A stretch of 64,000 nucleotides of DNA, from the IMG/VR virus record IMGVR_UViG_3300035660_000006; one strand, given 5' to 3'. This document shows, piece after piece, positions 6,493-64,000 of the stretch. The DNA is from a virus. Under the pieces are notes generated by a model. It was not told where the DNA came from and searched no databases. It saw only the letters and a program-made list of their open reading frames with translations. Numbering within the stretch: the first letter of the stretch is position 1; each line of letters opens with the position of its first letter. Both the position numbers and the translations under genes were made by a program.

Positions 6493-7677
6493 TTGAAAAT
6501 AAAGATAACTTATATAGTAAAATATACTAAATCCTTATTAACTGACTTTCACAAAATTTTTCCTATGTTCTCACAATTTCATTTGATTGGCGACCCCTTC
6601 TTCAAAAGGAAAGTGAACGATGAATATGATTTTGATTCCCAACCTTTTATACCCACACAAACAGTTGAAACAATTTGTGGGGAAATAGATTATACTTTAC
6701 AGTTTAAAGAAGAATTTTTTGAGAGTTTATTAGGTGATAGGGGAACTGGTAAGACAAGTTCACTTGTCTACTTTAAAAATTATATTGAGAAACATAGCAA
6801 GAAAAACAATAAAAAAACACTTGTTGTTTATGTAAACGAAGATTTTGACAAACTTTTCGGAAATTTTTTCACCATCAATCGTCTTTTAACTGGTTCTTTT
6901 TTAAATATAAAAAATGAAAATGAGGCAGAAAAAAACACTAAAGAAGAGATAGAAAAATATTATAGTGTATATTTTCTTTTTGACATACCTGAAGATGTTA
7001 GTGATTTGAAGGAATTTAAAGAATTTGGGAAGTTGTTGGATTTTATTTTGAGAAATCATTGTGGCTCTATTATTATTTCTATGAACAGAAATCACTACAA
7101 TAAATTATGTAGTGTAACTAATATTGTTGGTGTAGACGCAAAAATAACAACTCGTGATGTTGAAAAAGATTTTAATGAAAATTTAATGTTAAAAATAACA
7201 TTATTAAGATTAAAAATGTTCAGGGAAAATGGTTATCAGGATGACAACTACTTTCCATTCACTATTGATGCTTTGCGTTTGATTGCAAATTTTTCAAATA
7301 ATATCCCAAGAAACTTTTTAATGGCTTGTAGGACTTGTTTGTGTGAAGCAGACAAAAAAGATGTAAATATTATTGATGAAAATTTTGTCGAGAAAAATTT
7401 AAAAATAACATTCGCAACGCAGATAATAGAGAGTCAAGTAAAAGATATAGGGGAAAGGAGAATATATTTTGTGATTTATGAATGCCTTAAAAACAACTTT
7501 TCTTCCAAATGTGAAGACATTCAAAAATTATTCACTAAATTACAGGAAAAGGAAACATTCCCAATGTCATATCCATCCCTAATACATAGAATAAGAAAAA
7601 TGAACGATTGGGGAATTTTAAATACCGAAAGAAATTTTAAGACACCGAGAGGCAAGTCAATCGAGGTGATTGTATGA
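6493..7677 (+). CDS. AAA+ ATPase, Orc1/Cdc6-like candidate replication initiator
   Basis: Walker A GDRGTGKTS; Walker-B-like FLFDIPED; sensor-1-like IIISMNRN; about 390 aa; immediately upstream of MCM; real start probably downstream of 6493. Confidence 0.55.
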   Translation: MKIKITYIVKYTKSLLTDFHKIFPMFSQFHLIGDPFFKRKVNDEYDFDSQPFIPTQTVETICGEIDYTLQFKEEFFESLLGDRGTGKTSSLVYFKNYIEKHSKKNNKKTLVVYVNEDFDKLFGNFFTINRLLTGSFLNIKNENEAEKNTKEEIEKYYSVYFLFDIPEDVSDLKEFKEFGKLLDFILRNHCGSIIISMNRNHYNKLCSVTNIVGVDAKITTRDVEKDFNENLMLKITLLRLKMFRENGYQDDNYFPFTIDALRLIANFSNNIPRNFLMACRTCLCEADKKDVNIIDENFVEKNLKITFATQIIESQVKDIGERRIYFVIYECLKNNFSSKCEDIQKLFTKLQEKETFPMSYPSLIHRIRKMNDWGILNTERNFKTPRGKSIEVIV

Positions 7678-12080: not shown

Positions 12081-12692
12081 ATGCCAAAAATAGATGGTTC
12101 GTGGGACAAAGTGTGGAAGAGTTATGAAGGGTTAAATATATTTGGAAGAAAGTTAATAGATGCGACAGAAGAAAAATTCAAAGAAGTTCTTTTGATGTAT
12201 ATACCAAAAGATTTTTCCATAATTGAAGTCGGTTGTGGGGCAGGAAATACACTTGCAATTTTCAGGAGATTAGGGTATAAGGATGTTGTTGGTATAGACC
12301 CATCTATCAATTCGATGAGATTATGTTTGCAGAAAGGATTTGTGGTAAATAAAGATGTATTCAAAAATAATTCGCAAGAATGGAAAGTGAAAAAAGATGT
12401 TGTATTCTCGCATGGAATGTTAGAGCATTACGATTATGTTCCCATGAAAGAGATTGCTAAAGATTTTGTGAGATTAGCGAAAAGGTTTATCGTGATAGTC
12501 CAACCAAACCCAGAATCTATCGTTCATATAATAAGAAAGAAAGTGACAAAATCAAGATGGGAATGGGAAAGACCTTACACAGCGAATGATTATAAGCAAA
12601 TATTCACTTCGCTTGGCTTCAGGCTTATTTATGAAACTACAATAAATTATTTTCATGAGGATTATTTCATGATTTTTGAAAGAGGTGAATAG
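12081..12692 (+). CDS. class I SAM-dependent methyltransferase
   Basis: motif I IIEVGCGAGNT. Confidence 0.7.
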   Translation: MPKIDGSWDKVWKSYEGLNIFGRKLIDATEEKFKEVLLMYIPKDFSIIEVGCGAGNTLAIFRRLGYKDVVGIDPSINSMRLCLQKGFVVNKDVFKNNSQEWKVKKDVVFSHGMLEHYDYVPMKEIAKDFVRLAKRFIVIVQPNPESIVHIIRKKVTKSRWEWERPYTANDYKQIFTSLGFRLIYETTINYFHEDYFMIFERGE

Positions 12693-21063: not shown

Positions 21064-23058
21064 TTATTCACCACCATTAAAACCATAACTCACTTTTTTC
21101 AAAATTTTCTCGTAAAGTTTGACAATTCCATCTTTCAATTCTTCACCATCTTTAGCGATGATAAAATTATCCTTACCATAGATGTTTTCAAAATACATTC
21201 TATAATTTGCATTATCCTGACCAAAAAATATTCCAAAGATATGAATGCCTTTTTCTCTTGTCAATTTCACTTTTTCTTGTGTAAGAATACTTTCATCTGC
21301 CATCCCATCTGTAATTGTGAATATTATTTTCAACTCATCTTCTACTTCTTCTAATTTTTTTGTTGCAATAACAGTTGCCTGTGCAGTTGGAGTTCCACCC
21401 CCTGCTGTCAATCCATTGATTCTTCTAACATCAAGTTCATCATCCCATTTCTTGACAAGAAAATCATTATAACCCTCAAATCCTCTTATAGCAAACTTCA
21501 CACCAAGAGTCTCGAAGACCTTACCTAAAATGTAAGTTGTTTCTTTTGAATTGGACAACTTTACTTTATTGCTGATTAAGTTTCCTGTTATCTTATCATA
21601 AACAGAATCCATTTGCCCCATACTTCCAGAGCAATCTATCATCAATATGACCGAATGTTCTGGTGTCTCGATAAGTTCCTTCTCATAAATATGATTATCA
21701 AATTCACCATCAATGTTATATTTGACAAAACTTCTGACTGCACTCTTCAACTTCAATTTACCAGTTGTCTGGTCTCCAACTAATGTTCTTCCTATTATTA
21801 TCCTGTTCTTCAATTCTTGTGAAATCATATCGGCAGTAGAATCAGCCCTGCTTGTATTGAATTTACTTTCATAACCTTTTCTTGGAATATTCAAACTTAG
21901 ACCAGCACCATCAGAATCCATGAATTCCTTCTCTAATTTTTCTGTTTCATCCCCTGCTTTCATTCTTATCTGTCTTTCAATCTTTTCTTGAGAAGTATAT
22001 TCATCCTTGAATTTTTCCTTGATAATCTTGACAAATTTATCTATTTTATCCTGCGATTTCATAATTTCTGGGCTACTCTGGTCATCCTCATCCTTATCAT
22101 CATCTTCACTTTCTTCTTCACTTTTTCCATCTTCTTCACGTTCCTCTTCACTTTGTTCACTTTCTTCATCTTTATATTCTTCTTCCTCGCTTTCATCGGA
22201 GTCGGAATCATCACTGTCTAACATTTCCTCAAATTCTTTTTTGAATTTATCAAATTCTTTCTCAATCTTCTTTGTTTCTTCCTTAGATAATTTTGATTTA
22301 TCTTTTTTACCACTGAAGTCAAACTCTTGGTCTTGGGTTTTTCCAACACCATTATCACTCTTGTTATTTCTTGTTGAATTCATTTTACTTGTTTCTTGAC
22401 TTGGCAAATCTTTAATCAAAACATCATAAATATCAAGTGCTATCTTAACACAACCCTCAAAGTCTTGGTATATCACATCTTTTGAAATCTTAATCAATTT
22501 TTCCATTAATTTTCTCTCAGGATACAATGTTTTGAATCCCCTCAACTCAAGACTTAATGAATATAAAACATCAGTAATCATTCTATTTTTTTCCATCAAT
22601 GCTAACTTATGGAAGAATGAAAGACTAAAACCAAGAAGTTCTGGACAGCCCCTATACAAATTCATACCAAGAAATTCTATCCTTACATCTTCAATAGAAT
22701 TCAAACACATCTTTAACAAATTCCAATCAATATTATATGAAGAAGGTCTTAATTTATTGACAATTCTTTTCGCATTACCAGTAAATAAAATATGAAAAGC
22801 CTCATGCAAGGATATACCTTTTTTGAGAATCCAATCAACAAAAGAATCAGAGGGAAATATTTGTCTGGGTAAAAATATTTGATTAGACTTTATGTTTGAA
22901 TAAGGAGTCTTACTCCCAAAAATAACCCTGACATTTCCCTTCTTGGTTAAAGTTTGGGTAAGGATTGACAATACATCAATCTGGCTATCTTCCCTTATAT
23001 CTTGGACTACATTATCTATTATATCCTTCATGTGTTCAAGTTTGTATTTGTCAATCAT
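21064..23058 (-). CDS. von Willebrand factor A (vWA) domain protein with acidic low-complexity linker (CbbO/NorD-like)
   Basis: C-terminal MIDAS VILMIDCSGSMG (DxSxS); long D/E/S-rich tract; overlaps the stop of the MoxR gene. Confidence 0.8.
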   Translation of the reverse strand: MIDKYKLEHMKDIIDNVVQDIREDSQIDVLSILTQTLTKKGNVRVIFGSKTPYSNIKSNQIFLPRQIFPSDSFVDWILKKGISLHEAFHILFTGNAKRIVNKLRPSSYNIDWNLLKMCLNSIEDVRIEFLGMNLYRGCPELLGFSLSFFHKLALMEKNRMITDVLYSLSLELRGFKTLYPERKLMEKLIKISKDVIYQDFEGCVKIALDIYDVLIKDLPSQETSKMNSTRNNKSDNGVGKTQDQEFDFSGKKDKSKLSKEETKKIEKEFDKFKKEFEEMLDSDDSDSDESEEEEYKDEESEQSEEEREEDGKSEEESEDDDKDEDDQSSPEIMKSQDKIDKFVKIIKEKFKDEYTSQEKIERQIRMKAGDETEKLEKEFMDSDGAGLSLNIPRKGYESKFNTSRADSTADMISQELKNRIIIGRTLVGDQTTGKLKLKSAVRSFVKYNIDGEFDNHIYEKELIETPEHSVILMIDCSGSMGQMDSVYDKITGNLISNKVKLSNSKETTYILGKVFETLGVKFAIRGFEGYNDFLVKKWDDELDVRRINGLTAGGGTPTAQATVIATKKLEEVEDELKIIFTITDGMADESILTQEKVKLTREKGIHIFGIFFGQDNANYRMYFENIYGKDNFIIAKDGEELKDGIVKLYEKILKKVSYGFNGGE

Positions 23059-24317
23059 GCATTCTCACTCTCTTCTTCTTTACCCTGATTTAAAATTTCT
23101 TCATATCCTAATTTTCCTTCCATTACTGCTTCTGCAACTGACATCAATCCACTTCTGACTGTCTCATCATCTGAAAGTTTCAAGGCAATAGAGTGTTTGA
23201 ATGAAGTTAGCACTGTCGCTTTTTCCTGAATATATCCATCACTTTTTATCTTGAGCAACTTCACCCAAGATTCTGCTTCTCTTGAAGATATTTGCAATTT
23301 CTCATATCTCTGTCTTATCAGACCTATTGTCTTTGCAATTTGTTCAGCCAATTTTTCTGGCACATCATGTTTTTTCATCAAAATCATTTTTTGCCTTATT
23401 TCTTTTGGATGGCTGAAATAGAACTCTGCGTCTATCCTTGATTTAAGTGCTGGTATCAATGGTTTAATGAATGCAAGTGGATTCATAGTCAAGAAAACTA
23501 CCAAGTTAGGATTTCTCACAACTTCCCCACCCTTATCTTCGAGAATTATTTCCCTTCTCTCATCAAGCAAGGAGTAGAAAATTGATTGGTGTTCTCTCTG
23601 CATGAAATTCACTTCTTCTATCTGTAACCAACAATCATTCTTCAATGCTGTGGTTATCAGACCATCAACCCACTCGGTAATTATTTCACCCTTCTCATCT
23701 CTTCTGATAACATACTTACCCTTCAATTCCTGTGCTTCTGTGTTAACTGTCACATTTACTCTTATAATTGGTTTTTTGTATTTCCATTGTAGATACTTGA
23801 TAAGAGTTGTCTTACCTGTTCCTGCTTCACCTTTGAACAAAAGAGCAGTGGTATCGTTGTTTTCAAGAATCCTCTCTATTGTTGTTAGATTTCTATCAAC
23901 ATCATAGAATAAGGGTTTTTCGATTGGTGGTTCAATATAACAAGCCTTGTATTTAACATCACCAACTTCGAGTTCAGTTTGTTGAACTACTGGAGAAGGT
24001 TGAGGTTGCTGAACTGCAACTTGTGTTTGTGGTTGTATTTGTTGGTTCACTTTTTTCACTTTTTGTGCAACTTGTGTTTGTTGTGTTGCAACATGGTTTG
24101 TATGACCTGACTTCGCTTCGTATCTTTGCCTGTCGTAAAATTTTTTACAATCCTTACAATAGGCAATCTTAGGAAGTTTAGGATTTTTCCCACATTTGGG
24201 ACAAATTTCAATTTGCTGTTTTCCTTTCATTTTCTCATCCCCATTCATTATTTGAATACAACGAATACTATGAATACATAAGGTTAAATACTTTACTGAG
24301 GGTAAAAAATACCCCAT
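23055..24317 (-). CDS. MoxR-family AAA+ ATPase (CbbQ/NorQ-like) with N-terminal zinc ribbon and Q-rich linker
   Basis: Walker A GEAGTGKTT; Walker B WLQIEEVN; CPKCGK...CKDCKK; real start probably an internal Met. Confidence 0.8.
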   Translation of the reverse strand: MGYFLPSVKYLTLCIHSIRCIQIMNGDEKMKGKQQIEICPKCGKNPKLPKIAYCKDCKKFYDRQRYEAKSGHTNHVATQQTQVAQKVKKVNQQIQPQTQVAVQQPQPSPVVQQTELEVGDVKYKACYIEPPIEKPLFYDVDRNLTTIERILENNDTTALLFKGEAGTGKTTLIKYLQWKYKKPIIRVNVTVNTEAQELKGKYVIRRDEKGEIITEWVDGLITTALKNDCWLQIEEVNFMQREHQSIFYSLLDERREIILEDKGGEVVRNPNLVVFLTMNPLAFIKPLIPALKSRIDAEFYFSHPKEIRQKMILMKKHDVPEKLAEQIAKTIGLIRQRYEKLQISSREAESWVKLLKIKSDGYIQEKATVLTSFKHSIALKLSDDETVRSGLMSVAEAVMEGKLGYEEILNQGKEEESENA

Positions 24318-28352: not shown

Positions 28353-28656
28353 ATGCACAAAAAGAAAGATTATTATGATAGAGTAGTAGAAAAGGAAATA
28401 TTAAAATTGAATAAACAGGGAAAGTCTATTGATGAGATTGATGAACATCTTGTTTATGGTATGGAATTCTCCCCAGAATATTCATGGGAGATGATTAAAA
28501 AAACACTTAAATTAAAACAAAAGGTGAAATGAATGTACACAAGAAAAAAATTTATGAAATATATAAATGAGATGGGAAATTTAGGATTATTAAATTACGA
28601 AGAACATACAAAAATCAAAGAAAGAATTATGTCTAATCCAAATTTAAGGTGAAAAA

Positions 28657-28892: not shown

Positions 28893-29711
28893 ATGAATAA
28901 AAAAAATAGAATATTATTAGCAAAATTACTTGGTTATATACATTCAGATGGTTGTTTTGTTAATAGAGGTAACAATATTTTTAAAGTTCAATTTGATAAT
29001 GATGATTTTACTTTAATAAAAGATTTTTCGGATAGTTTTCAAAGGGTTTTTTTAGTAAAACCACATATTCATTCATATTTTAAAAATGATAAAAAACATT
29101 TTTTTGTTGGAAAACAAGACCAAAAAATTATTAAAATAATGAGATTATTTGATATTTTTTCATTTAATAAAAAAGAGAAATGTGCCTATCTTTCAGGTCT
29201 TTATGATGGTGATGGAAGTGTTAGTTTTGGATTTAAAAAAGATGGACAAATGAGTTTTAGAATTAGATTTCATAACAAGGATGCAAAACTTATAGAAACA
29301 GTTAAGAAATTTTTACAAGATATTGGAATTAAAAATTCAAAAATTTATTCAGAAAAAATAAGAGGTTATGGGAGTGGAATTTTTTATAATATTTCAATAA
29401 CTAATCAAAAAGATGCTAAAATTTTTTATGAAAATATTAAGTTAAAATCAAAACATAAAATGGTAGCATTAAAAAATTATTTAAAAATAATTAAACCATA
29501 TTCTTCTGATAAATATTCATTTAAATTGAAAGAAAAGGCAATAAAACTTCATAAACAAGGTTTTGGATGTAGAAAAATTGCAAAAATATTAAATGTGAGT
29601 TCTGTCAGAGTAACAAGATGGTATAAACAATTTGGTGATACAAAAAGATATAAAGGTTATCCTGCAAGATGGGATGTGGTAAAAGAAAAAGTTCTTTTCT
29701 TCAAAAAATAG
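28893..29711 (+). CDS. LAGLIDADG homing endonuclease with C-terminal HTH
   Basis: two LAGLIDADG motifs (LLAKLLGYIHSDGCF; AYLSGLYDGDGSV); C-terminal HTH GFGCRKIAKILNVSSVRVTRW. Confidence 0.8.
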   Translation: MNKKNRILLAKLLGYIHSDGCFVNRGNNIFKVQFDNDDFTLIKDFSDSFQRVFLVKPHIHSYFKNDKKHFFVGKQDQKIIKIMRLFDIFSFNKKEKCAYLSGLYDGDGSVSFGFKKDGQMSFRIRFHNKDAKLIETVKKFLQDIGIKNSKIYSEKIRGYGSGIFYNISITNQKDAKIFYENIKLKSKHKMVALKNYLKIIKPYSSDKYSFKLKEKAIKLHKQGFGCRKIAKILNVSSVRVTRWYKQFGDTKRYKGYPARWDVVKEKVLFFKK

Positions 29712-34380: not shown

Positions 34381-35499
34381 ATGTTAAAAAATATAAATAT
34401 GACTACAAAGGTTATAAAATGTGGTGTTGTCGGTCTAACCAACAATAAAAAAGAATGTTTGGACAGTGAATGGTCTAACTTTCAAGATTTTCTACAACTG
34501 AAAAATACTCTTTGGTGGAAGAATGATTGGGGTAAGAACATCTATTCTGCCAACAAACAACAGGCAGAAAGGTTCTACAAATCAATAGAGGAAGGAAAGG
34601 AATACCCAATTTCAATCAGAAAAGACCTAATACAGATTGAAAAAAAGGATACAAAACTCGCTAAATATTGGTTCAGAATGAGAGTTAAGTCAAAAAGAAA
34701 TCTATGGTTGGCAATAAAACCACACCAACCAATCTCTGATGATGTTGAATTTCAAGAGAGTAAATTACTTAAAAAGAATGGTCAATACTTCATCTATCTT
34801 ACTATTCAAAAGGAAATCAAAATAAAAAAATCATACTCAAACATACTCTCCATAGATTTAGGAGTGAAATGGATTGCTACTGTCTGTGACATGAAATCCA
34901 AAAGACCTGTTTTCTATGGGAAAGAGTTGAGAGGAATTAGAGGAAAACATTTCTATCTAAGAAGGAAAATTCAAAAGAAAAAGATAAGACAAATGGGAAA
35001 GTGGTTGGAAAATAACAAAGAAGAAAGAATAGTGAATGACTTAATACATAAAATTTCAAGAGATATTGTCAATAAAGCAAAGGAAACAAACTCCATGATT
35101 TGTTGGGGTGATATAAAAGGAATAAGGAAAAACAACAAAGGAAGAAAGTTCAACAGGAAATTGAATAGTTTTCCATTCTACAAATTGAAAGAGCAAATCA
35201 GATACAAAGCAGAATGGGAAGGAATAAAAGTTGTTGAAATTAGCGAAGCATGGACATCACAAATTTGTAATAAATGTAGTGAGAAGGGAACAAGAAATAA
35301 AGGTTTGTTCAAATGTAATAGTTGTGGATATGAGGATAATTCAGATAGGAATGGTAGTCTAAACATAGGCAAACGAGTTCTTGGGCAAGTCTCAAGAATA
35401 GGGGTATCTGTGAATATACCCAAAACTGAAGCAGAAAACATAAAGAATACAAAAATTAGAAATTCAGTAAGCGACTTCAGAAGCCACCTATTTCAATAG
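34381..35499 (+). CDS. tnpB: TnpB (IS200/IS605 OrfB) RNA-guided nuclease family, solo
   Basis: RuvC-I SIDLGVKWIATV; zinc finger CNKCSEKG...CNSCGYEDNSDRNGSLNIGKR; RuvC-III. Confidence 0.85.
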   Translation: MLKNINMTTKVIKCGVVGLTNNKKECLDSEWSNFQDFLQLKNTLWWKNDWGKNIYSANKQQAERFYKSIEEGKEYPISIRKDLIQIEKKDTKLAKYWFRMRVKSKRNLWLAIKPHQPISDDVEFQESKLLKKNGQYFIYLTIQKEIKIKKSYSNILSIDLGVKWIATVCDMKSKRPVFYGKELRGIRGKHFYLRRKIQKKKIRQMGKWLENNKEERIVNDLIHKISRDIVNKAKETNSMICWGDIKGIRKNNKGRKFNRKLNSFPFYKLKEQIRYKAEWEGIKVVEISEAWTSQICNKCSEKGTRNKGLFKCNSCGYEDNSDRNGSLNIGKRVLGQVSRIGVSVNIPKTEAENIKNTKIRNSVSDFRSHLFQ

Positions 35500-38757: not shown

Positions 38758-39336
38758 GTGGAAGAGAGGAGAGTATTGCAATTTAGGATATTTGGTAGAG
38801 TATTCACTATTTTCTGGAAAAAAAGTGGAAAAGATTATTCTTTCAATTTTAGGTCTACATTTCTTGAAAAACCATGCGTGGGGATTAATAGCAATGTTTA
38901 TGGTTCTGATATTTATAAAAACCAACTTCATTTTTTTATGGGGGATTTTGATGATATTCTTACATTGAAGCAATTAAAGAAAAAGGTTAGGGAAGTTCAG
39001 GACAGATTTAAGGATTTAGTTGGCGATGGATATATTTACGAAACTTCACCAAATAAGTTTTCTCTGCATTTCTATCAGTTATCAACTTACTGGGAGTGGA
39101 TGAAGGTAATTCATTTTCTTAATGATTGTTTGGATACGAGTTATGTGCGATGGCGTCTCAGGAGAAATTCGATGGTCATGCGATTATCACCTAAATCTTC
39201 TGGTTATATTCCAAAACTTATTGAAGTTGTGAAAACAAAATATCACAAAGGAGAAGACGAGTTTTCAAAAAGAATGATTTTGCAAAATTTAAATAGCGAG
39301 GTGAAAATAAAAGATGGTTCATACACCAAGAATTGA
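38758..39336 (+). CDS. archaeo-eukaryotic primase (AEP/PrimPol)-like protein candidate
   Basis: DxD (FFMGDFDD), SxH (KFSLHFY) and motif-III-like (MVMRLSPKSSGY) in the right order. Confidence 0.4.
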   Translation: MEERRVLQFRIFGRVFTIFWKKSGKDYSFNFRSTFLEKPCVGINSNVYGSDIYKNQLHFFMGDFDDILTLKQLKKKVREVQDRFKDLVGDGYIYETSPNKFSLHFYQLSTYWEWMKVIHFLNDCLDTSYVRWRLRRNSMVMRLSPKSSGYIPKLIEVVKTKYHKGEDEFSKRMILQNLNSEVKIKDGSYTKN

Positions 39337-39943
39337 AGAGCCAACAATATTCATTCCAACACTTGAGCAATGGAAAGCACCCAGCGATGAAGAAATAAAA
39401 AGAAGAAGGGAATTTAGCGTAGTTCTATACGCCCCAAAATATGATGAGAAACTGAGAGAAGAAGCGACAATAACTTATAATGAAACAGATGGAACATTTG
39501 AAGTAGAGATAACAAAAGTTGGAAAAGCGAAGTGGAGTGAAAATTTAGGTAGATTTAGTTCTTATGAAGAAGCGAAGGCAAAACTTTATAGTAGATTTGA
39601 TGATTTATTTAATACACCATCCCCAAGTGGGATGGGTGGTTCATGGGATTATGATAAAGATGGAAATCAAAGAACATCAAGCCATCCAGCGATGCAGACT
39701 AAAAGAAGCATATCATTAATCGAAGGAGATGAAGCAGAAGCAGTATTGAAAGCAAGAGTGGAAAGTGTAGAGTTTACACCTAAAGGAAAGAAGATGAAAT
39801 CTTATACAATAAGAGTCCCAGATACAGGTATGCCAACAATGATTTCTGTGCGAACACTTTACCCTTCATACTTTAAACACATAGACCAATTGCACACCAA
39901 AAGAGTAGCAAGATTAAGAAGGATTAGACAGAGTAAAAAGTGA
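39314..39943 (+). CDS. hypothetical protein (209 aa)
   Basis: ORF. Confidence 0.45.
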   Translation: MVHTPRIEEPTIFIPTLEQWKAPSDEEIKRRREFSVVLYAPKYDEKLREEATITYNETDGTFEVEITKVGKAKWSENLGRFSSYEEAKAKLYSRFDDLFNTPSPSGMGGSWDYDKDGNQRTSSHPAMQTKRSISLIEGDEAEAVLKARVESVEFTPKGKKMKSYTIRVPDTGMPTMISVRTLYPSYFKHIDQLHTKRVARLRRIRQSKK

Positions 39944-52040: not shown

Positions 52041-52885
52041 TTGCATTCATTAGAGAGAGAAGAAGAACAACAAAGTGGTAATTTAATTAGCGAGGGAGTC
52101 GCTGGGTGGAAAATGCTTTTCAATGCGATAAAAAGGAAAAAACCAGAGGAACAGCAATCACAACCGATTAATAATTAATGCGTATAAAGGCAGAAAAATT
52201 TAACTTCCGAGAATATCAGCAGGTATTTGATGACGAAGTTTTATATTTATAATTTCACTTTTTCCACTTTTTTATAGATTAAAATTATATGTATACAATC
52301 GTATTCAATTATTTAATTTTAAAATCCTAACAATTTTTATGGATTTTGAAAACATGGAACATTTATTAAGAGTTCTTATTCTTGTTTTATTACTAATTGT
52401 CCTAATCGCAATAATTGTAAAACTTAACCAGACTTGGCATCTCTTCGATGGTTGGTTCAGGTCTATAAGTTGCTGGTTATTTGGCTGTTGAAAGTTTAAA
52501 ATCTGACATCTTGACATTCACTGACAAGTTGTCATTTTCTATACCTTATAAATAAAATTTTCTTCAAAACTATGTTTATCTATGAAAGTGATTACCTTAT
52601 GATAATCACTGAATTAGCCTTTAAAAAATAAAATGTGAAAAACATGGCAACAGTCAATGATACACTCTTTTAAGTCATTATGGTTTTAAAGAGGTCATAA
52701 TTGACTGACATTGGAAATGGAGTAGGTGCTTTGTTCACTGGTATGGGTGCAAGTTTGTAAGTGAAAATTTGCAGACCACCAGCCATTAGCAGTGTTCATC
52801 ATACTACTCGCAATAGGAACAGGGGTTGGATAGCAGAGGAATTTGCCCAAATACATCCTTGCTTCTATTGGTAGAAGGGTCGGTG

Positions 52886-53071: not shown

Positions 53072-53875
53072 ATGAAGAAGTGTAAATATTGTAAGAACGA
53101 ACTTAAAAACCCTAAAAGAAGTTTTTGTAATCAAAAATGTTGGCATAGTTATTATTCTAAATATTATTCTGGAAAAAATAATCCTTGTTTTGGTATTAAA
53201 AAAAATGGAGAATACAAAAAATGTTCAAATTGTGGAAAAAAAATATGGGTTGTAAATAATAGATTGAGAAGACTAAATAATTATTTTTGTAATAGAAAAT
53301 GTTGGAGAAAATCAGAAAAGGAGTCAATAAAAGTCTTATGTAAATTTTGTGGAAAAGAAAAAATAACATACCCTTATGATAAGAATATAAAGAGAAATCA
53401 TTTTTGTAGTCAAAAATGTAAAGCAAAATGGCAGAGTGAAAATCTCAATGGAAAAAATAATAATAATTTTAATAATTATTGGAATAATCAACAAAAAAAA
53501 TCTCTTGGCGAAAAACAAAAAATAAGATTAAGAGAACATCCAGAAAAACATCCAAATAGAATTCTTGCAAAAAATGGACATATATCAACACCACAAAAAC
53601 AACTCTTCAAATTAATCAAATATTATTATCCTTCTGCTGAATTAAATCATAGAGTTATAACTAAAAATGGGTTTGGGCAAAGACATGCTGATGTTGGTCT
53701 CCCAGAATTTAAACTTGACATCGAATTTGATGGAGATTATTGGCACAACCCAGAAGATGATAGAGAAAGAGACCAAGAACTTCTCGAAGTTGGGTGGAAA
53801 ACTATTAGATTTGGTTATAAAGATTTGAAGACACCAGAAATGATAATTAAGAAAATAAAAGAATGGTTAAGTTAA
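53072..53875 (+). CDS. homing-endonuclease-like protein: three FCS-type zinc fingers plus a Vsr/DUF559-like PD-(D/E)xK domain
   Basis: CxxC...FC(N/S)xKC three times; C-terminal FDGDYWHNPEDD...GWKTIRF. Confidence 0.65.
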   Translation: MKKCKYCKNELKNPKRSFCNQKCWHSYYSKYYSGKNNPCFGIKKNGEYKKCSNCGKKIWVVNNRLRRLNNYFCNRKCWRKSEKESIKVLCKFCGKEKITYPYDKNIKRNHFCSQKCKAKWQSENLNGKNNNNFNNYWNNQQKKSLGEKQKIRLREHPEKHPNRILAKNGHISTPQKQLFKLIKYYYPSAELNHRVITKNGFGQRHADVGLPEFKLDIEFDGDYWHNPEDDRERDQELLEVGWKTIRFGYKDLKTPEMIIKKIKEWLS

Positions 53876-57063: not shown

Positions 57064-57387
57064 TTGAAGAGATTGGAATTTATTAAAAATAATACTTCAA
57101 CAAAATTAAACACACCATATTTTATTATTGTTCATAGCATAGCAAGAAACATGGCAAGACCATTAACATTCCCAATTGAAGTCAAGACTGGGAAAAGACA
57201 GACAAGGGAATTTGAACTCGGAGAACTCATTCAAGAATTAGAGGAAGCACATATTAAAATTAACGAGATAGAACAGCAGATTGCCCAGAATTATTCAATA
57301 GATATTCCACTCAACCAGCAAGGACAGGCTATTGTATTTGATTTCAATAATCCAAAGCAAGGTATGGAAGACAGATTCAAATTTTAA
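57064..57387 (+). CDS. hypothetical protein upstream of the endonuclease gene
   Basis: ORF. Confidence 0.4.
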   Translation: MKRLEFIKNNTSTKLNTPYFIIVHSIARNMARPLTFPIEVKTGKRQTREFELGELIQELEEAHIKINEIEQQIAQNYSIDIPLNQQGQAIVFDFNNPKQGMEDRFKF

Positions 57388-58361
57388 TGGTGAAAAAAAC
57401 GAATTGCAAAGAAATAAAAATTAATAGAGAAGAATTATTTAAAAAATATGTTATTGAAAAAAAATCAACACCAAAAATTGCTAATGAGGTTAATAGTAAT
57501 AGAGAAACAATTAGAAAACTTTTACATTTTTATAAAATACCAATTAAAATACCTATTAAAGAAACAATCAGTAAAGAAGAATTAGAAAAATTATATATTA
57601 ATAAAAAAATGTCTTGTAACGAAATAGCAGAAAAATTTAAAACTAATAGAGAAACTATAAGAAAATTACTTCATTTTTATAAAATTAAAATACAACCTTC
57701 TTCAGAAAGATTGAAAGGTAATAAATTTATGTTAGGTAAAAAACATTCAGAAGAAACTAAGATAAAAATAAGTCTTAAACATAAAGGTAAAAAATGTCCC
57801 TTTTTATCAGAATACAATAAAAAATATAAAAGTCAACAAATGAAAGAAAGATGGGAGAACCCATTTTATAGGAAACAACAATCTGAAAGTATGAAAAAAA
57901 ATAATCCAATGAAAAATCCAATTTTTAGAAAAAAGGTTAGTTTGTCAAAAATTGGAGATAAAAACCCATGTAAAAGACCTGAAGTAAAAGAAAAACTAAG
58001 AAAATTTAGAATGACACAAAAATTTCCTTTAAAAAATACAACAATTGAAACATTATTACAGAATGAACTTGAAAAAAGAAACATTCAATTTACTCCTCAT
58101 AAAACAATTTTAAATATAACACAACCAGATGTTTTTATCGAACCAAACATTTGTGTTTATTGTGATGGAGATTTTTGGCATAGTAATCCTAAATTTTATG
58201 ATAGAAATAATTTGAAATATAAAAGTCAAATAAACAATTTAAAAAATGATGAAAAAAATAATATAATTTTAAAAGAAAATAACTATAAAGTTTTTAGATT
58301 TTGGGAAAATGATATTTTAAATAATGTTTCAAAATGTGTAGAAGAGATAATAAATAATTGA
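57387..58361 (+). CDS. homing-endonuclease-like protein: HTH repeats plus NUMOD3 motifs plus Vsr/DUF559-like domain
   Basis: duplicated NRETIRKLLHFYKI; NUMOD3-like HSEETKIKIS...NPMKNPIFRKKVS; C-terminal CVYCDGDFWHSNP...RFWEND. Confidence 0.65.
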   Translation: MVKKTNCKEIKINREELFKKYVIEKKSTPKIANEVNSNRETIRKLLHFYKIPIKIPIKETISKEELEKLYINKKMSCNEIAEKFKTNRETIRKLLHFYKIKIQPSSERLKGNKFMLGKKHSEETKIKISLKHKGKKCPFLSEYNKKYKSQQMKERWENPFYRKQQSESMKKNNPMKNPIFRKKVSLSKIGDKNPCKRPEVKEKLRKFRMTQKFPLKNTTIETLLQNELEKRNIQFTPHKTILNITQPDVFIEPNICVYCDGDFWHSNPKFYDRNNLKYKSQINNLKNDEKNNIILKENNYKVFRFWENDILNNVSKCVEEIINN

Positions 58362-58512: not shown

Positions 58513-59604
58513 ATGGTAGAATTTCCAAAAATAGAACCAAAATTAGTAGCACCAAGAATCATCAATGCGAAATGGATTGTTGACCCAATTCAAGACACAG
58601 AATTACAGGAACAGATGAGTAAAAATCCAATGTTTGCAGAAGCAATTTTAAGACCAAGAACAGAACTTTTGATTAGAGCAATACAAGAAAAAGTGAGATA
58701 CAGGGAACATATAGGCATAGAAATTAAGGGAGGAACACGAACAGGAAAATCCAGCATAGCAATAGCACTTTGCAAATTCATAAGTGCATTGACAGGAGTC
58801 CCTTTCACTTTGAAACATATTTGCCCAAACGAGATAATTTATCTCCAAAGATTGAAAGACCCAAAATTACCAAATGGTAGTGTGTTTCTAATTGATGAGC
58901 AAACTGAAACGCATACAGGGGCAGGAAGTTATTCGGAAATGTCTGTCCTTGAAGATATTCAACAGATTTGTGCAAAGGAACAGATACATTCGATTTGGTG
59001 TCATCCTCATGAATTTGTTGGCAGGATGTCCACAATCGGACTTGAGACCTATGGGAAAGACCCAGAAAATCTTCTGTGTAGATGTATCATGTATAATATA
59101 GCAACAAGCAGATTGACTAAAGTTCCAATGGGGCAAGTGATTATTCCAGTAGGACAATTGTATAGTTGTGGCTTATTTGGTAAGCCGACAAGAACTGCAA
59201 CAGGATTGAATACAATAATAACATGCATTGAAGATATTTGTCCAAGATATGGAAAGTGTCAAGAATTCATGGCTCAATATGAATATGAGAAAGACAGCAA
59301 AATCAAGCAAGTAAGGACAAGAAGCCTAAAAGACAGGGAAGTGGAAAGGTTAATGATGATTGACCACATTGCAAAAGACAAGAACTTTCAGAATGCAAAG
59401 AATAATGATGAACGAATGAGTTTAGCCAGATTTTTAGTCCCTTTCGGAACTCCAGAAAAATTAATTGGAGAACTATTGAAAATGGCAGTCGCAGTAATTG
59501 AAAAAAGAATCGACATAAAAGAACTCAAGAAGAGTTTAGTCGAGCAAGGCAACATTTCGCAGGAAGAAAGTGAGGAAGGAGAAGAAAATGAGGAAGAGAA
59601 CTAA
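58513..59604 (+). CDS. P-loop NTPase (candidate DNA-packaging or replication ATPase)
   Basis: Walker A GGTRTGKSS; Walker B VFLIDEQTE; acidic C-terminus. Confidence 0.55.
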   Translation: MVEFPKIEPKLVAPRIINAKWIVDPIQDTELQEQMSKNPMFAEAILRPRTELLIRAIQEKVRYREHIGIEIKGGTRTGKSSIAIALCKFISALTGVPFTLKHICPNEIIYLQRLKDPKLPNGSVFLIDEQTETHTGAGSYSEMSVLEDIQQICAKEQIHSIWCHPHEFVGRMSTIGLETYGKDPENLLCRCIMYNIATSRLTKVPMGQVIIPVGQLYSCGLFGKPTRTATGLNTIITCIEDICPRYGKCQEFMAQYEYEKDSKIKQVRTRSLKDREVERLMMIDHIAKDKNFQNAKNNDERMSLARFLVPFGTPEKLIGELLKMAVAVIEKRIDIKELKKSLVEQGNISQEESEEGEENEEEN

Positions 59605-59655: not shown

Positions 59656-60597
59656 ATGGGAAGATATAAAGTAAGATGTAGAATTTGTGGTAGATTTTTC
59701 TCTAAAATAGATTGGAGTCATTTAAAAAAACACAATATAACTTTCAAAAAATATAAAATTAGATTTCCTAATAGTAAAACTCAATCAGAGTTAACAACAA
59801 AAAAATTCATTAAAAATGGTTCTAAAAATATTAAATATATATTAGAAAAGCCGAAAAAATTAAGGTCTAAATGGGGGAAGAAAACTGGTATTTTAGGTGT
59901 TTTGTCAAGAGAGGATAGAAGAAAACGAGACTTAAAATATAACAAACATTGGGAAAAAACATTCACAATTGGACAGAAAAAAAGGGATAAAAAAAGGAAA
60001 AAGAGAAGGAAAAATGACCCAAAATTTGATAAAAAATTGAGAAAAGTTAGTAGAAAGAATGGAATTAAAACACAAAAAATTATGAAACAAAAATCTAAAC
60101 AAGATTATAATTACGAAAAATGGCTTAAAGAAAGACAATCATTGGGACAAATAAAAGCACAAAAAATAATAAAAAAGAGAAGGCAAGAAGACCCAAAATT
60201 TGATAAATATTTAAGAAAGTGTTGTAGTATTGCTGGTTTTATTGGTCTTAAAAAACTTCGTGAAAATAGTCCATTTTGGTTTATGGGTGTTCCTTTTGCT
60301 TCACCTTCTGAAAGAGAATGTGCCAAATTATTTTACAAACATCTTAATTGGATACCAAAAGAAGGAGTAAATTGTCATATTCAAATAGGGAGATGTGAAT
60401 ATGATTTTAAAATTAGTGGTTGTTTTGTTGAATATCATCCAAAAAGTGATTTGTATGATACAACAATCAAAATTTATTATCAGAAGAGAAGAAGAAATCT
60501 CGATAAAAACAATCTTAAAAATAAGAAACTATTTATTCTTCAAAACCTCGAAGATGTCATGAATTTCATAAATATAGAGAAATTTAACAAAAAATAG
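59656..60597 (+). CDS. endonuclease-like protein with basic repeats and a DUF559/Vsr-like C-terminal region
   Basis: N-terminal CRICGRF zinc motif; repeated DPKFDK(K/Y)LRK; CEYDFKISGCFVEYHP. Confidence 0.5.
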   Translation: MGRYKVRCRICGRFFSKIDWSHLKKHNITFKKYKIRFPNSKTQSELTTKKFIKNGSKNIKYILEKPKKLRSKWGKKTGILGVLSREDRRKRDLKYNKHWEKTFTIGQKKRDKKRKKRRKNDPKFDKKLRKVSRKNGIKTQKIMKQKSKQDYNYEKWLKERQSLGQIKAQKIIKKRRQEDPKFDKYLRKCCSIAGFIGLKKLRENSPFWFMGVPFASPSERECAKLFYKHLNWIPKEGVNCHIQIGRCEYDFKISGCFVEYHPKSDLYDTTIKIYYQKRRRNLDKNNLKNKKLFILQNLEDVMNFINIEKFNKK

Positions 60598-60624: not shown

Positions 60625-60647
60625 GAAAATATTTAAATATTTGTAAG
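60625..60647 (+). promoter_or_regulatory. conserved palindromic promoter element GAAAATATTTAAATATTTGTAAG
   Basis: ATG 24 nt downstream (60671). Confidence 0.6.
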
Positions 60648-61708
60648 TTCTATATTTATTATTGATTAACATGGTTCACATGATTGAAAAGAAAGATATT
60701 TCAATTACAGGAGAAGAAATATTCTTACCAACTTCCCCTGAAGAGTTAGGAGAAGAAAAAATCGAGCAAGAACCTGTTGAAGAGAAACCTCTGCCCACAA
60801 AACCAGAGGATATTGAATAATGCTTATAATGAGGTGAAAAAAATGAGAACTGGTAGACACAGACCAAATAAATATACAAAACATAAGGTAACAAAACTAA
60901 GAACAATCGAAATACCTGAAGGGTTCAAATTTTTGACAGTTGAGAGACATCCACATGAACCACGAAGGATGAGAATTGTTTTTAAAAAGGATTGAAGAAA
61001 ATGCACAAAAAAACAGACAGTTTAAGTGACCCCAATGATTGGGAACATGTTAAGTTTATGGAAAATGAAGGAGATAGATATTTAGACGAAATGGATAAAG
61101 ACCTCGAAGATATTGATTCGCAATTATAATTAAATTAAAGGTGAAAAAATGGCAAAAAGAAAAATGGGAAAACATAAGGTTAAAGAAACTAATCCATTTG
61201 CTGGGGATTTGAAAGATTTGGAAGGTTATGGAAAAGCATTGCTAAAACAAAAATATACACCAGTAGTGCAACCAAGTCTTGCAAAAGTTAGAAAACCAGA
61301 GGCGTTATTCTAAAATGGCACACAAGATTAGCATGAAAACAATGGCTGGTGCTGTCGCAAGTCCAAAAACTCCAATGAGATTAAAATTAGGATTAGTAAA
61401 AAAATATCCAGCATTGAAGCAATACATGAAGTGAGGTTAATGCCTCATAAAATTAAAAAAGAAATGTTGCGAGATTTAATTACTCAGGAAAAAATGAATT
61501 TAAAATTTATTCAACAATTACCAAAAATAGATTATGAAGCATTTAGATATACAGTAAAAACCCCAGTATCAGGGGAATTTTCAGTTTTAGGCTCTGGATT
61601 TGTTCCAAGCGAGAAAGGGTTTAAGGCAATTAAACCATTATTAAATTAAGGTGAAAATAATGCACAAGAAAAAAGATAATAAAGCAAATCCCTTTGCTAA
61701 TCCATTAA

Positions 61709-62353
61709 ATGAATGGATTAAATCAGGGGAAAAATGGGCTGTCAAATCAGGTGATTAATATTTCCAAAAAAAGTGGAAAGCATAAAATCAGAAAAAGAGA
61801 GCCTGATTTATTTGAGCAGTATGAAGCCGAATTTGAACGAATGTATCCTGAAGAAGAGGAATATGAAGAAGAGCCAGTTGAAAAAGTGAAAGTGAAAAAA
61901 TCAAAAGGTATACATAAGGTTCAGAAAGAAGAATCATTATCATTATTTCCAAGTCCTGAAGATTTGCCAGAAGAAGAAAGCGAAGAAGATTGGTTAGAAA
62001 GACAAAGAAAAGGTTATGAAGAACAAGCAGAAGATTTCAAAAAAATGGCAGAAAGTGGGCAGAAGTTTGCATTAGGAACTTACCACACTGTAAACAAAGC
62101 AGTTCAGGGTGCTAAAAGAGTTGGGAAAAAATTAAATCTAACATTACAAATGATTAAGAGTAAATTTGGAAAGCATAAAGTTCCAAATCAACCTATTCAA
62201 GTTTTCATAGAACCCACAGAAGAGGGTGATTATGTTGTTTATGGTCAAACTACAAGAAGAGAAGTCCCTGTTTCAAAACCAACACAACCAGTTAAAGTTT
62301 ATACTGAATATCCATCAGAAGAAGAATATGTAAAATATGAGGAGTTGATGTAA
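61709..62353 (+). CDS. acidic hypothetical protein (214 aa)
   Basis: ORF within M(V)HKK array 3. Confidence 0.45.
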   Translation: MNGLNQGKNGLSNQVINISKKSGKHKIRKREPDLFEQYEAEFERMYPEEEEYEEEPVEKVKVKKSKGIHKVQKEESLSLFPSPEDLPEEESEEDWLERQRKGYEEQAEDFKKMAESGQKFALGTYHTVNKAVQGAKRVGKKLNLTLQMIKSKFGKHKVPNQPIQVFIEPTEEGDYVVYGQTTRREVPVSKPTQPVKVYTEYPSEEEYVKYEELM

Positions 62354-62571
62354 TGGTTCATAAAAAAAGTTTAGTATTAACAAAAGAAGATAAAATAAAT
62401 TATGAAAAAGGATTTCAAAGTGGATTTGAAGGTAAAGATATGGGATATTTCAAAGGTTCATTTTATGAAAGAGGATGGAATGATGGAAGATTACATAGAG
62501 ATGTTAAAATAATAGATGAAGTAAAATCACTAAGAAATAAAATGTATAAAAAACATAAAAGGTTAAGTTAA
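62353..62571 (+). CDS. small protein, MVHKK start
   Basis: ATGGTTCATAAAAAAAG. Confidence 0.45.
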   Translation: MVHKKSLVLTKEDKINYEKGFQSGFEGKDMGYFKGSFYERGWNDGRLHRDVKIIDEVKSLRNKMYKKHKRLS

Positions 62572-62824
62572 GAATGGTTCATAAAAAATTAACTGCATGT
62601 CAAACAAGAGTATTGAAACACCTTAAAGGAGATAGCCAGACTTGGCTGAAACTATCTAAGAAAGCAAAAGAGGAATATTTATCTGATGTTAAATTAATGA
62701 AGAAGATAAAAGGTAATTAATGTAGATAATAATGTAGATAAGTATGGTAACTGATAAACAAAGAGTCAGGGATAGAAGGAAAACCAAAAAGGAATTTAAA
62801 AAAGAGGACAGATGGAGATAAATT

Positions 62825-63007
62825 ATGGTTCACAAAATGAAAGACAAATTATATCTTGCAGATTTTACTTATGTCGAGCCAGTTACAGGAACATATAAAG
62901 AAGCATTTGATTTCAAAGTTGAAGCAGAAAGTAAACAAGATGCTTTAAGACAAATTAAAAATTGGTTTAAAACTCATGGGACTATAAGAATTATGAAGGA
63001 AGGTTAG
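62825..63007 (+). CDS. small protein, MVHKMK start
   Basis: ATGGTTCACAAAATG. Confidence 0.45.
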   Translation: MVHKMKDKLYLADFTYVEPVTGTYKEAFDFKVEAESKQDALRQIKNWFKTHGTIRIMKEG

Positions 63008-63008
63008 T

Positions 63009-63293
63009 ATGGTTCATAAAAAAAAGAAATTAATTATAGAAGTTAATTATGTTTCACCAATGTTTAGAAGTTGGGGAAGAAAATTTTCAGTTGAAACATT
63101 ATTACCTGAAGATAAAGGGACATGGTTTATTTTAAAAAGAAAGAATTTTTACAAAAAAAATACAGCAATAAAATATGGTAAAGAAAAAGCAAAAGAATTA
63201 AATGCTAAATTTAGTGATAAAACAAGTTCAGAACAAAGATATAGAAAAGGAGAATATCTTATAACTAAAAAAGAAAGTTTAAGGATTGATTAA
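63009..63293 (+). CDS. small protein, MVHKKKK start
   Basis: ATGGTTCATAAAAAAAAG. Confidence 0.45.
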   Translation: MVHKKKKLIIEVNYVSPMFRSWGRKFSVETLLPEDKGTWFILKRKNFYKKNTAIKYGKEKAKELNAKFSDKTSSEQRYRKGEYLITKKESLRID

Positions 63294-63295
63294 AT

Positions 63296-63517
63296 ATGGT
63301 TCATAAAATGGATTTAAAAAATGTAGATGTTAAGGCAGTCTTGATTATTGGACAGCCCACAGAAGATATTAAACAGGAAGTTCCTAAAGATGTTCCAACC
63401 AAAGAAGTCAGTGATGATTTCTATTCTGATTTGGATTCAGGTATGGATGAGTTCACTGAATCTCTTGGTGGTGCTAAGAGAGATAAAGAACCTCTTTTTG
63501 CCGAAAAATCCCTTTAA
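63296..63517 (+). CDS. small acidic protein, MVHKMD start
   Basis: ATGGTTCATAAAATGG. Confidence 0.45.
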   Translation: MVHKMDLKNVDVKAVLIIGQPTEDIKQEVPKDVPTKEVSDDFYSDLDSGMDEFTESLGGAKRDKEPLFAEKSL

Positions 63518-63523
63518 ATTTTT

Positions 63524-63547
63524 GAAAAAATTTAAATATTTGTAATG
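63524..63547 (+). promoter_or_regulatory. conserved promoter element GAAAAAATTTAAATATTTGTAATG
   Basis: variant of the 22-nt motif; ATG at 63567. Confidence 0.55.
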
Positions 63548-63566
63548 TTAAATATATTTGAGTATT

Positions 63567-64000
63567 ATGGTTCACAAAACTGAAAAAATGGTTTCTTGCG
63601 ATTTGACGCAGATTAAGTCACCTAATGGTGCAGGAATCCATAAATATTCTTCTTCTACTGGCGATTGGCTTGACTCTTATGCTAAAGAAGTTGACAAGAT
63701 GGACAGAGCATTAGATAAATCCTATGAAGAGTCAGAAAAATTACAGGAAGAAGCAGAAGAGAGGATTTCACAACTTCAAGACGAAGAGGAAGCAGAAAGA
63801 CAAAAAGAAGAAGACCAATTATATCAGGAACAGATGAGGCAATTGGAAATAGAGAAAGCAAAGACAGAAGTAGAAATGATGAAAAAAGAACTTGAAGAGC
63901 AGAGAAAACCAGCACAACCAGAGTATGTAAAAAGAACAACTCCAGTAATTGTGGAGAAGAAACCAAGTATAAAAGAAAGAGTAGTAAGTCTTGGAAAGAA
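63567..64000 (+). CDS. MVHK-start coiled-coil protein, 3' partial (runs off the window)
   Basis: ATGGTTCACAAAACT after the conserved promoter; E/K/Q-rich. Confidence 0.45.
   Translation, partial: MVHKTEKMVSCDLTQIKSPNGAGIHKYSSSTGDWLDSYAKEVDKMDRALDKSYEESEKLQEEAEERISQLQDEEEAERQKEEDQLYQEQMRQLEIEKAKTEVEMMKKELEEQRKPAQPEYVKRTTPVIVEKKPSIKERVVSLGK

Follow-up and report, generated by a model that had tools for sequence, protein, structure and literature searches.

Organization of the Third Small-Gene Array

The window analyzed here, a 64,000-nucleotide stretch of DNA from the IMG/VR virus record IMGVR_UViG_3300035660_000006, ends in a dense array of small genes whose products open with nearly the same few residues, Met-(Val)-His-Lys. 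This array (array 3, positions 60625–64000) consists of 16 abutting plus-strand genes of 32–214 aa, 13 of which start with M-(V/A/P)-H or M-H, while three more carry G-x-H-K/R a few residues in. The original prediction of at least 12 genes with an M(V)HK start is thereby upheld. All ten starts that it listed are present, eight of them exactly where they had been placed; MAHKISM begins at 61315 rather than 61316 and MVHKKLT at 62574 rather than 62575. An eleventh member, MPHKIKK at 61440, was absent from that list, and the open reading frames (ORFs) at 60843, 61149 and 61709, which had been taken to lie between the members without sharing their start, carry the motif behind a short Gly-terminated leader or internally. 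Orthologues of the gene at 60843 start with MAHKY, MSHRY, MAHRY or MVHKKKY, and those of the gene at 60671, found in seven loci, with MVHI, MVHK, MHKT or MHKA. A search of a representative library with the 50-aa product of gene 2 returned a single additional family member.

The members shorter than 60 aa were rightly counted as genes. When the window is compared with L002, its 92% relative, orthologues differ at 125, 87 and 203 sites in codon positions 1, 2 and 3, respectively, and this concentration identifies the short ORFs, including those below 60 aa, as genuine coding genes. The corresponding nucleotide string, ATGGTTCAYAA, occurs ten times in the window against 0.27 copies expected, and six of the ten lie within array 3. 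The features are listed in Table 1.

Table 1. Promoters, genes and arrays with N-terminal M(x)H starts in the window.
Feature	Start	End	Strand	Remarks
Array 1	25908	28839	+	Promoter and about 17 genes; starts MAH, MH, MVH, MGH, MPH, several TTG starts
Array 2	50018	51162	+	6 genes, starts MH or MVH; T7 run at 51172 ends the array
Promoter copy 1	60614	60646	+	BRE-like GAAAATA, TATA box TTTAAATA (60632–60639), TTTGTAA
Gene 1	60671	60820	+	49 aa, MVHMIEKK...; first cistron, without Shine-Dalgarno site; about 39 nt after TATA start
Gene 2	60843	60995	+	50 aa, MRTG-RHRPNKYTKHKV...; leader, then G-R-H-R at 60852–60863
Gene 3	61001	61129	+	42 aa, MHKKTDS...
Gene 4	61149	61313	+	54 aa, MAKRKMG-KHKVKETNPFAG...; G-K-H-K at 61167–61178
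Gene 5	61315	61434	+	39 aa, MAHKISM...
Gene 6	61440	61649	+	69 aa, MPHKIKK...; orthologue starts MPHR, MHIK, MSHK
Gene 7	61660	61758	+	32 aa, MHKKKDN...
214-aa ORF	61709	62353	+	Three modules; openings G-K-H-K 61775–61786, G-I-H-K 61907–61918, G-K-H-K 62168–62179
Gene 9	62353	62571	+	72 aa, MVHKKSL...
Gene 10	62574	62720	+	48 aa, MVHKKLT...
Gene 11	62825	63007	+	60 aa, MVHKMKD...
Gene 12	63009	63293	+	94 aa, MVHKKKK...
Gene 13	63296	63517	+	73 aa, MVHKMDL...; last cistron of operon 1; T5 run at 63519 follows
Promoter copy 2	63513	63545	+	TATA box 63531–63538
First gene of operon 2	63567	64000	+	MVHKTEK...; partial, leaves window; 181 aa in L002; internal G-I-H-K 63633–63644

The MHKKKDN gene (61660–61758) and the ORF at 61709–62353 share 50 nt, read in different frames, an arrangement that L002 retains. 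The longer ORF has no ATG, GTG or TTG near its first G-K-H-K and no ribosome site before 61709; its initiation by frameshift from the upstream gene is possible. The only sizeable gap in array 3 (62721–62824) contains an untagged 25-aa ORF (62744–62821), and a 12-nt direct repeat, TAATGTAGATAA, occurs twice in tandem at 62718–62741.

Promoters and Operon Structure

The two conserved promoter copies that had been proposed for array 3 are a 33-nt unit, 94% identical between the copies and kept in distant relatives. The same element stands upstream of the first array gene in five related loci (L002, L004, L017, L019 and L021), and an exact 15-mer, TTTAAATATTTGTAA, occurs four times in the window, at 25908, 49071, 60632 and 63531. 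The sequence conforms to an archaeal TATA box preceded by a B recognition element (BRE): in such promoters TTTAWATA, with a purine-rich BRE just upstream, generally lies about 25–30 nt ahead of the transcription start, and here the GAAAATA and TATA box stand 39 nt before the first ATG. The bacterial sigma-70 promoter consensus shows no enrichment in the window, and bacterial promoters and terminators, not being enriched, were rejected as signals of the arrays.

Downstream cistrons have GGTGA-like sites 5–9 nt ahead of the start codon. Runs of at least six T lie on either side of the arrays and are missing inside arrays 2 and 3; two T6 runs (60611 and 60619) end the upstream gene at promoter copy 1. 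We read the arrays as polycistronic operons with a BRE/TATA promoter, a nearly leaderless first cistron, abutting cistrons led by GGTGA and an oligo-T end. The transcript is predicted to carry a leader of about 8–12 nt without a ribosome-binding site, rather than to start exactly 25 nt past the box.

The window has a GC content of 30%, with nearly all of its genes on the plus strand, and its MCM helicase matches archaeal viruses only, at no more than 30% identity. Because of this helicase, the TATA promoters, the GGTGA ribosome sites and an extreme avoidance of restriction sites (see below), the window appears to belong to an archaeal virus or mobile element that is uncultivated.

Conservation of the Array in Related Loci

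An ATPase gene (58513–59604) lies two genes upstream of array 3. Its product has 16 homologues among 5.8 billion proteins, none of them in IMG/VR, GTDB genomes or INPHARED; the contigs that carry them come from JGI, ENA, Logan and NCBI metagenomes. The ATPases are 44–92% identical. All of these contigs show the same layout, the ATPase followed by a long array of small, tagged genes. Across seven non-redundant loci, namely the window and six further metagenomic lineages, an M(x)H start is found in 110 of 125 array genes versus 13 of 226 other ORFs (Fisher p = 2e-58). Of the 15 array exceptions, most are explained by mis-called starts (MIMVHK, MVVMVHR) or by a short leader ahead of G-x-H-K/R. 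In one lineage, L004, 21 of the 22 array genes start with M-V-H-K or a variant. A phage array that served as a control (L020), which has bacterial-type replication genes, AGGAG-type ribosome sites and one homologue of an array protein, has no M(x)H start in its 36 genes.

A pattern scan of IMG/VR with the Shine-Dalgarno site plus ATGGTTCAYAAA gave single chance matches only. IMG/VR and the GTDB genomes were also scanned for paired motifs, which turned up no further arrays, only collagen-like or duplicated out-of-frame repeats; a Micrarchaeota contig from these scans was rejected as a surface-protein repeat.

Composition of the N-Terminal Tag

When M-x-H at ORF starts is counted without bias, x is V in 84 cases, A in 6, P in 3, G in 1 and T in 1, against four other residues, and M-H occurs directly at 24 starts. 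Additional examples with Ser, Thr or Gly at x come from L017, L019 and L021. Met aminopeptidases cleave off the initiator Met ahead of V, A, P, G, T and S (PMC10381334), whereas a Met directly before His stays in place. Residues that permit excision are enriched at x with p = 2e-35, and with p = 8e-4 when Val is left out. We infer from this composition that the initiator Met is removed from the M-x-H proteins. Both kinds of start therefore have the same predicted mature end, X-His-Lys/Arg, with His at position 2. Within orthologous families MVH, MH, MAH, MPH and MSH alternate while His stays in register, and in genes that start with TTG His is also the next residue. Among 116 tagged proteins, whose N-terminal residue is V in 78 and M in 23, the His is followed by K/R in 95, then by I/T/K/V and, in about half, by K/R twice, which yields the loose consensus V-H-K-phi-K-K.

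Beyond the tag the proteins are unrelated. In an alignment of 69 of them His is the sole invariant column and mean identity is 6%. They match different families (Kyano_Gp96, DUF7417, DUF5771, DUF4241 and eight PHROGs), lack as a class the similarity in sequence or fold beyond the motif that a tandem paralogous family would show, and fall in all-against-all BLAST into clusters that mostly contain only orthologues from different loci. The array proteins are small (median 67 aa), soluble and highly charged, and none of the 116 has a transmembrane segment.

Comparison with homologues elsewhere shows, at the level of sequence, that the tag was added to these proteins within the lineage, since homologues outside it lack it. 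Two independent families illustrate this. In the Kyano_Gp96 family the four closest of 10 homologues start with MVH, and the others with MSKNLG, MAQQRK and the like. In DUF7417 the tag is present in the five closest of 93 members, while the others begin just ahead of the conserved core. An AlphaFold model of the Kyano_Gp96 protein of the window (predicted local distance difference test score, pLDDT, 84) has residues 1–3 below pLDDT 50, and the fold starts at about residue 12.

A Conserved Peptide Rather than a Conserved Nucleotide String

The codons of the motif are strikingly uniform in AT-rich lineages, where about 70 of 72 Val codons at the motif are GTT, a codon whose share among Val codons overall is only 22–44%. 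This uniformity is explained by restriction-site avoidance. The window contains 0 copies of GATC (157 expected), 0 of CTAG (73), 1 of AGCT (97), 1 of GTAC (74), 0 of GGCC (33), 0 of GCGC (19), 0 of GGWCC (25) and 0 of GTGCAC (4.9); CATATG and GATATC are likewise absent. At the motif ATG-GTA-CAY would create GTAC, ATG-GTC-C(AY) would create GGTCC and GTG-CAC would create GTGCAC, so that only GTT, or GTG together with CAT, is permitted. GTG at the motif is indeed paired with CAT in five of five cases. Where a site is not avoided the corresponding codons appear: L017, which keeps GTAC, uses GTA-CAC five times, and L019, in which GGTCC is not avoided, uses GTC-CAC six times.

Relatives with 47% GC keep M-V-H-K/R while encoding Val by GTA, GTC, GTG or GTT, His by CAC or CAT and Lys by AAA or AAG, and while exchanging Lys and Arg. 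The conserved unit is the peptide and not the string ATGGTTCAYAA, and a signal at the RNA or DNA level was rejected on the grounds of these synonymous Val codons and of site avoidance. A caution for the reading of sequences follows: a conserved 11-nt string can be a peptide constraint filtered through the avoidance of restriction sites.

The avoided palindromes themselves vary among the relatives compared (L002, L004, L009, L017, L018 and L019). Apart from the GTAC of L017, L004 and L019 keep GATC, and L018 avoids CATG. These differences imply different restriction repertoires in the hosts.

Internal Copies Preceded by Gly

The motif also occurs inside array proteins. Gly is found at −2 of internal H[KR] sites in 15 of 58 cases versus 3.7 expected (p = 2.5e-6), an excess that is absent from non-array proteins. 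The sites have the form G-[I/K/V/M/R]-H-[K/R] and lie in register with N-terminal copies. Residues 68–157 of the 214-aa ORF (IHKVQKEE...) align from residue 2 (VHKTEK...) of the stand-alone protein L004_14105 with E = 1.4e-9, and the three internal sites of this ORF, all kept in L002, are spaced like three ordinary array genes. Further in-register pairs are MAKRKMG-KHKVKETNPFAG of gene 4 with M-HKKKDNKANPFAN of gene 7, MTRRG-VHKFHYG with M-VHKFHLG, and MRTG-RHRPNKYTKHK with M-AHKYKKHK. In the family of the gene at 63567 (homologues in L004, L009 and L018) the internal G-I-H-K is kept although the flanking residues have fully diverged. x-H-K is thus retained away from the translation start, and there it always follows Gly.

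The internal x (I, K, V, M or R) is bulky; of these residues only Val permits Met removal and only Met can itself stay in place, which would account for the prevalence of Val and Met at true N-termini. Internal sites were rejected as non-AUG starts, AAA, AGA and GTT being among their x codons and the GG abutting the codon, too close for a Shine-Dalgarno site. Nor do the sites resemble class III (prepilin-type) signal peptides, in which a basic leader with Lys/Arg at −2 and Gly/Ala at −1 precedes a hydrophobic stretch: the residue before Gly varies (W, T, M, S, K, F, A, Y, R), and a hydrophobic segment is present in none of the 116 tagged proteins. The Gly-preceded copies suggest either that cleavage after Gly re-creates the N-terminus, in a polyprotein-like manner, or that a reader accepts Gly instead of the free amine.

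A Proposed Shared N-Terminal Handle and Its Alternatives

These observations lead us to favor, with some confidence, a model in which the arrays encode unrelated small proteins that carry, in their mature form, the same N-terminal X-His-Lys/Arg handle, which a single partner recognizes. Loss of the initiator Met would leave X-His-Lys/Arg, with X mostly Val, sometimes Ala, Thr, Ser, Pro or Gly, or a retained Met, and cleavage after Gly in fused or leader-bearing forms would yield the same N-terminus. The tag would be a floppy overhang outside the fold that the lineage adds to whatever gene it acquires. The partner would read the free alpha-amine, the imidazole of His2 and Lys3, and thereby impose a common fate on the whole class.

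Three fates are proposed, in descending order of preference. The handle could control stability or turnover by N-degron logic; it could direct delivery or encapsidation, like the capsid-targeting sequence (CTS) that T4 places on diverse anti-defense proteins; or it could guide N-terminal or Lys modification, like the X-P-K motif for alpha-N-methylation. Encapsidation is attractive because the virus shows such extreme avoidance of restriction sites. In its boldest form, which we offer tentatively and would give somewhat less than an even chance, the proposal is a dedicated N-terminal code: a free X-His-Lys/Arg end, produced either by Met aminopeptidase or, in polyprotein-like fusions, by an endoprotease cutting behind Gly, would be recognized by one reader that controls how stable about a third of the viral proteome is, where it is delivered or how it is modified.

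Several points weigh against the shared handle. A stretch of three to four residues is very short for specific recognition, and the Met aminopeptidases of known systems process Val N-termini only in part. The window yielded no candidate for the reader or for a Gly-specific protease; it does encode an M50 peptidase, an SPFH protein, a MoxR/VWA pair and a class I methyltransferase, but nothing ties these to the tag. We know of no N-terminal recognition pathway in archaea that is keyed on His at position 2. Finally, CAC outnumbers CAT at the motif by 9 to 1 in the MH genes of the window and by 16 to 3 in L004, whereas CAT outnumbers CAC genome-wide by about 3 to 1. This residual preference shows that there is some selection at the codon level too, and it would fit with selection that favors accurate decoding at a critical His.

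The same preference can be claimed by a different explanation, in which codons 2–4 (GUU CAY AAA) or the nascent M-V-H-K are part of an optimized initiation or early-elongation region that every cistron reuses, with the amino acids mattering only to the throughput of ribosomes or to a class-specific translational regulator like T4 RegA that targets them. In bacteria codons 2–5 have a strong effect on yield, the motif is tied to the start codon behind uniform Shine-Dalgarno-like GGTGA elements, A-rich codons follow it, and A/T-ending Val codons are enriched even in the 47% GC relatives. We nonetheless consider such a translational role unlikely. Val is kept through all four of its codons and Lys exchanges with Arg, the preponderance of GTT being accounted for by avoided sites, and the confinement of the optional residue to the Met-excision set would be needless for an RNA signal. 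The motif shifts by one codon, from MH to MVH, inside orthologous families; internal G-x-H-K copies are conserved far from starts and in register with the N-terminal ones; and the motif is absent from the enzyme genes of the window (MCM, methyltransferases) and from its putative membrane, secreted or structural genes. A tandem duplication of one paralogous family, with the shared start as the only part that has not diverged, meets with still greater difficulty and is hardly credible. The genes are in tandem, similar in size and charged in composition, and a few members are detectably related, such as a 12-member family that includes the genes at 61709 and 63567; yet the low column identity, the single invariant His and the BLAST clusters described above speak against common descent, as does the membership of these proteins in different Pfam and PHROG families that are also found, without the tag, in unrelated phages.

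Two further explanations dispense with a reader altogether. The gene junction (stop, Shine-Dalgarno site, ATG GTT CAY AAA) could be a scar of recombination, a microhomology for the shuffling of cassettes in which a captured gene takes over the opening codons of the gene already in place, the peptide as such being without function; boundary sequences and the promoter-stem-loop (PeSL) cassettes of phage hyperplastic regions would be parallels. Arrays do turn over rapidly between close relatives, L002 having extra genes relative to the window, native N-termini have been replaced in the acquired families Kyano_Gp96 and DUF7417, and the only repeats in the array are stretches of at most 16 nt at gene starts. 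There are, however, no attC-like or other local inverted repeats and no longer junction repeats of the kind that mark integron-like or PeSL-like cassettes. The junction nucleotides vary within genomes (four Val codons; MH, MA, MP, MS, MT), which erodes any microhomology, whereas His is invariant across lineages whose ATPases are only 44–55% identical, and neither the Met-excision residue set nor the Gly-preceded internal copies would be explained. We regard this origin as quite improbable. Binding of metal strikes us as more improbable again. A free amine together with a His in second or third place is well known to chelate Cu(II) and Ni(II) with high affinity, so that an N-terminal X-His like that of Gly-His-Lys, or M-V-His as an amino-terminal Cu(II)- and Ni(II)-binding (ATCUN) motif, could be the point of the tag; His is its sole invariant residue, and the preceding residue keeps the amine free. 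The Lys/Arg after His and the basic stretch are needless for chelation, however, and ATCUN needs His at 3 while X-His needs it at 2, so that the start types differ unless Met is removed. There is also no biological rationale for forty different small metal-binding proteins per genome.

Were the model of a shared handle with a single reader correct, it would describe the first N-terminal recognition pathway, N-degron-like or targeting, for archaea and their viruses, in which scarcely any N-terminal rules of stability or targeting have been described, and would provide a portable tag of three to four residues. VHK peptides could serve to capture the reader, and His-to-Ala and Val-to-Leu swaps would offer an experimental handle. 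Runs of genes starting with M-V-H-K are a signature by which this virus group and its accessory, probably anti-defense, genes can be found in metagenomes.

Other Features of the Window

Array 1 contains one true exception to the common start, MYTRKKF at 28533. This gene (28533–28652) reads ATGTACACAAGAAAAAAA, and CACAAGAAAAAA (H-K-K-K) sits one base out of frame, as if the start were a frameshifted former MHKKK. Isolated tagged genes lie outside the arrays at 20631 (minus strand, MHKIKEM, 37 aa), at 39314–39943 (MVHTPRIEEP, 209 aa) and at 52041–52178 (TTG start, MHSLEREEE, 45 aa); the last is kept in L002, L003 and L012. In L002 (15767–15970) and L009 (7490) there is a tagged paralogue (MVHTFTESMSDVGSGVGGLFTGM...) of an untagged 54-aa hydrophobic family (MGTLNETLADIGAGLGGLFTGMGAPLAVFI...) that sits in a putative structural module upstream of the ATPase.

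The ATPase that flanks array 3 has four invariant Cys residues and no Pfam match or PDB sequence match. Its fold gives a weak RecA/KaiC/DnaB-like match (template modeling score, TM, 0.2–0.28), too weak for assignment as a packaging or secretion motor. Some of its homologues (P0013, P0015 and P0016, with PF14890) contain inteins. Free-standing genes resembling homing endonucleases (HNH/NUMOD3, DUF559/Vsr-like, LAGLIDADG) are located at 53072–53875, 57387–58361, 59656–60597 and 28893–29711; they cluster near the conserved ATPase and where array 1 ends.

Besides these the window encodes ParB, an MT-A70 methyltransferase, the class I methyltransferase, a Cas4-like nuclease, the SPFH protein, the M50 peptidase, glycosyltransferases and, at 34381–35499, a TnpB/Cas12f-like gene (OrfB_IS605 plus TNB domain) within the viral genome. 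A MoxR-type AAA_5 ATPase adjoins a VWA-domain protein at 21064–24317 (minus strand) and again in L021 at 4103–7275. This pairing is known from Acidianus two-tailed virus (p618/p892) and hints at the biology of large spindle-shaped viruses. Scans of the window for tRNAs and with Rfam gave no matches.

Comparison with Known Systems

The closest viral precedent is the set of T4 internal proteins, small and highly diverse, which share only a short N-terminal CTS that leads to their encapsidation and which take part in an arms race with restriction (PMC3012670). The tag resembles the CTS as a short N-terminal sequence that is the only common feature of diverse small viral proteins. It differs in sequence, in host domain and in scale: the CTS has about 10 residues, ends in an L/I-x-E site cut by the prohead protease and is found on a handful of proteins, whereas the tag has three to four residues, consists of x-H-K/R with a loose basic stretch and is found on about 40 proteins in 64 kb. 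Pfam and PHROG scans of the window revealed no prohead protease, portal or terminase, and no tailed-virus morphogenesis module was found.

The arrays also recall the early-gene or hyperplastic arrays of phages such as T4 and SPO1 (its host-takeover module), which are dense operons of small ORFs with fast-evolving accessory genes and strong promoters, and some families (Kyano_Gp96, DUF7417) are shared with such phage arrays. The phage arrays have no common N-terminus, however, as the control array above illustrates.

Among cellular motifs, IAP-binding motifs (inhibitor of apoptosis proteins; Reaper/Hid/Grim, Smac AVPI) and N-degrons share the same logic: unrelated proteins expose an N-terminal tetrapeptide whose free end is needed for recognition by one reader. 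The M|V-H-K and G|I-H-K ends, arising from Met excision or endoproteolysis, would fit this scheme, although the sequence is a different one and the known readers (BIR, UBR, ClpS) are eukaryotic or bacterial. To our knowledge no archaeal N-recognin has been described, and a His in second place does not figure among the known determinants. Gly-His-Lys, Asp-Ala-His-Lys of albumin and Val-His-Leu of haemoglobin beta are N-terminal copper or nickel sites, and the tag offers the same chemistry, a free amine beside His, often followed by Lys. Those sites belong to single proteins or peptides rather than to a class-wide tag, and ATCUN has a free N-terminus with His exactly at 3, while His is at 2 in the MH type (23 of 116) and at 3 in the MVH type only if Met is retained.

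The motif of the NTMT/NRMT methyltransferases, iMet-X-P-[K/R], is a tripeptide that becomes N-terminal once Met is removed; it begins with a small residue, has Lys/Arg in third place and is recognized by way of the free alpha-amine (PMC10381334). The tag has the same design, including Lys/Arg at the third position in 95 of the 116 tagged proteins. It differs in that an invariant His takes the place of Pro, X is mostly Val rather than A, S, G or P, and the M-H-K form retains its Met; the known system is, moreover, eukaryotic. The window does encode a class I S-adenosylmethionine (SAM) methyltransferase (12081–12692), which nothing ties to protein substrates.

The tag therefore belongs to none of these systems, since it lacks the defining features of each. 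A literature search on MVHK and on conserved N-terminal motifs in archaeal viruses found no description of the motif, and as far as these searches show, a uniform tripeptide on more than 100 unrelated proteins of one virus lineage is new.

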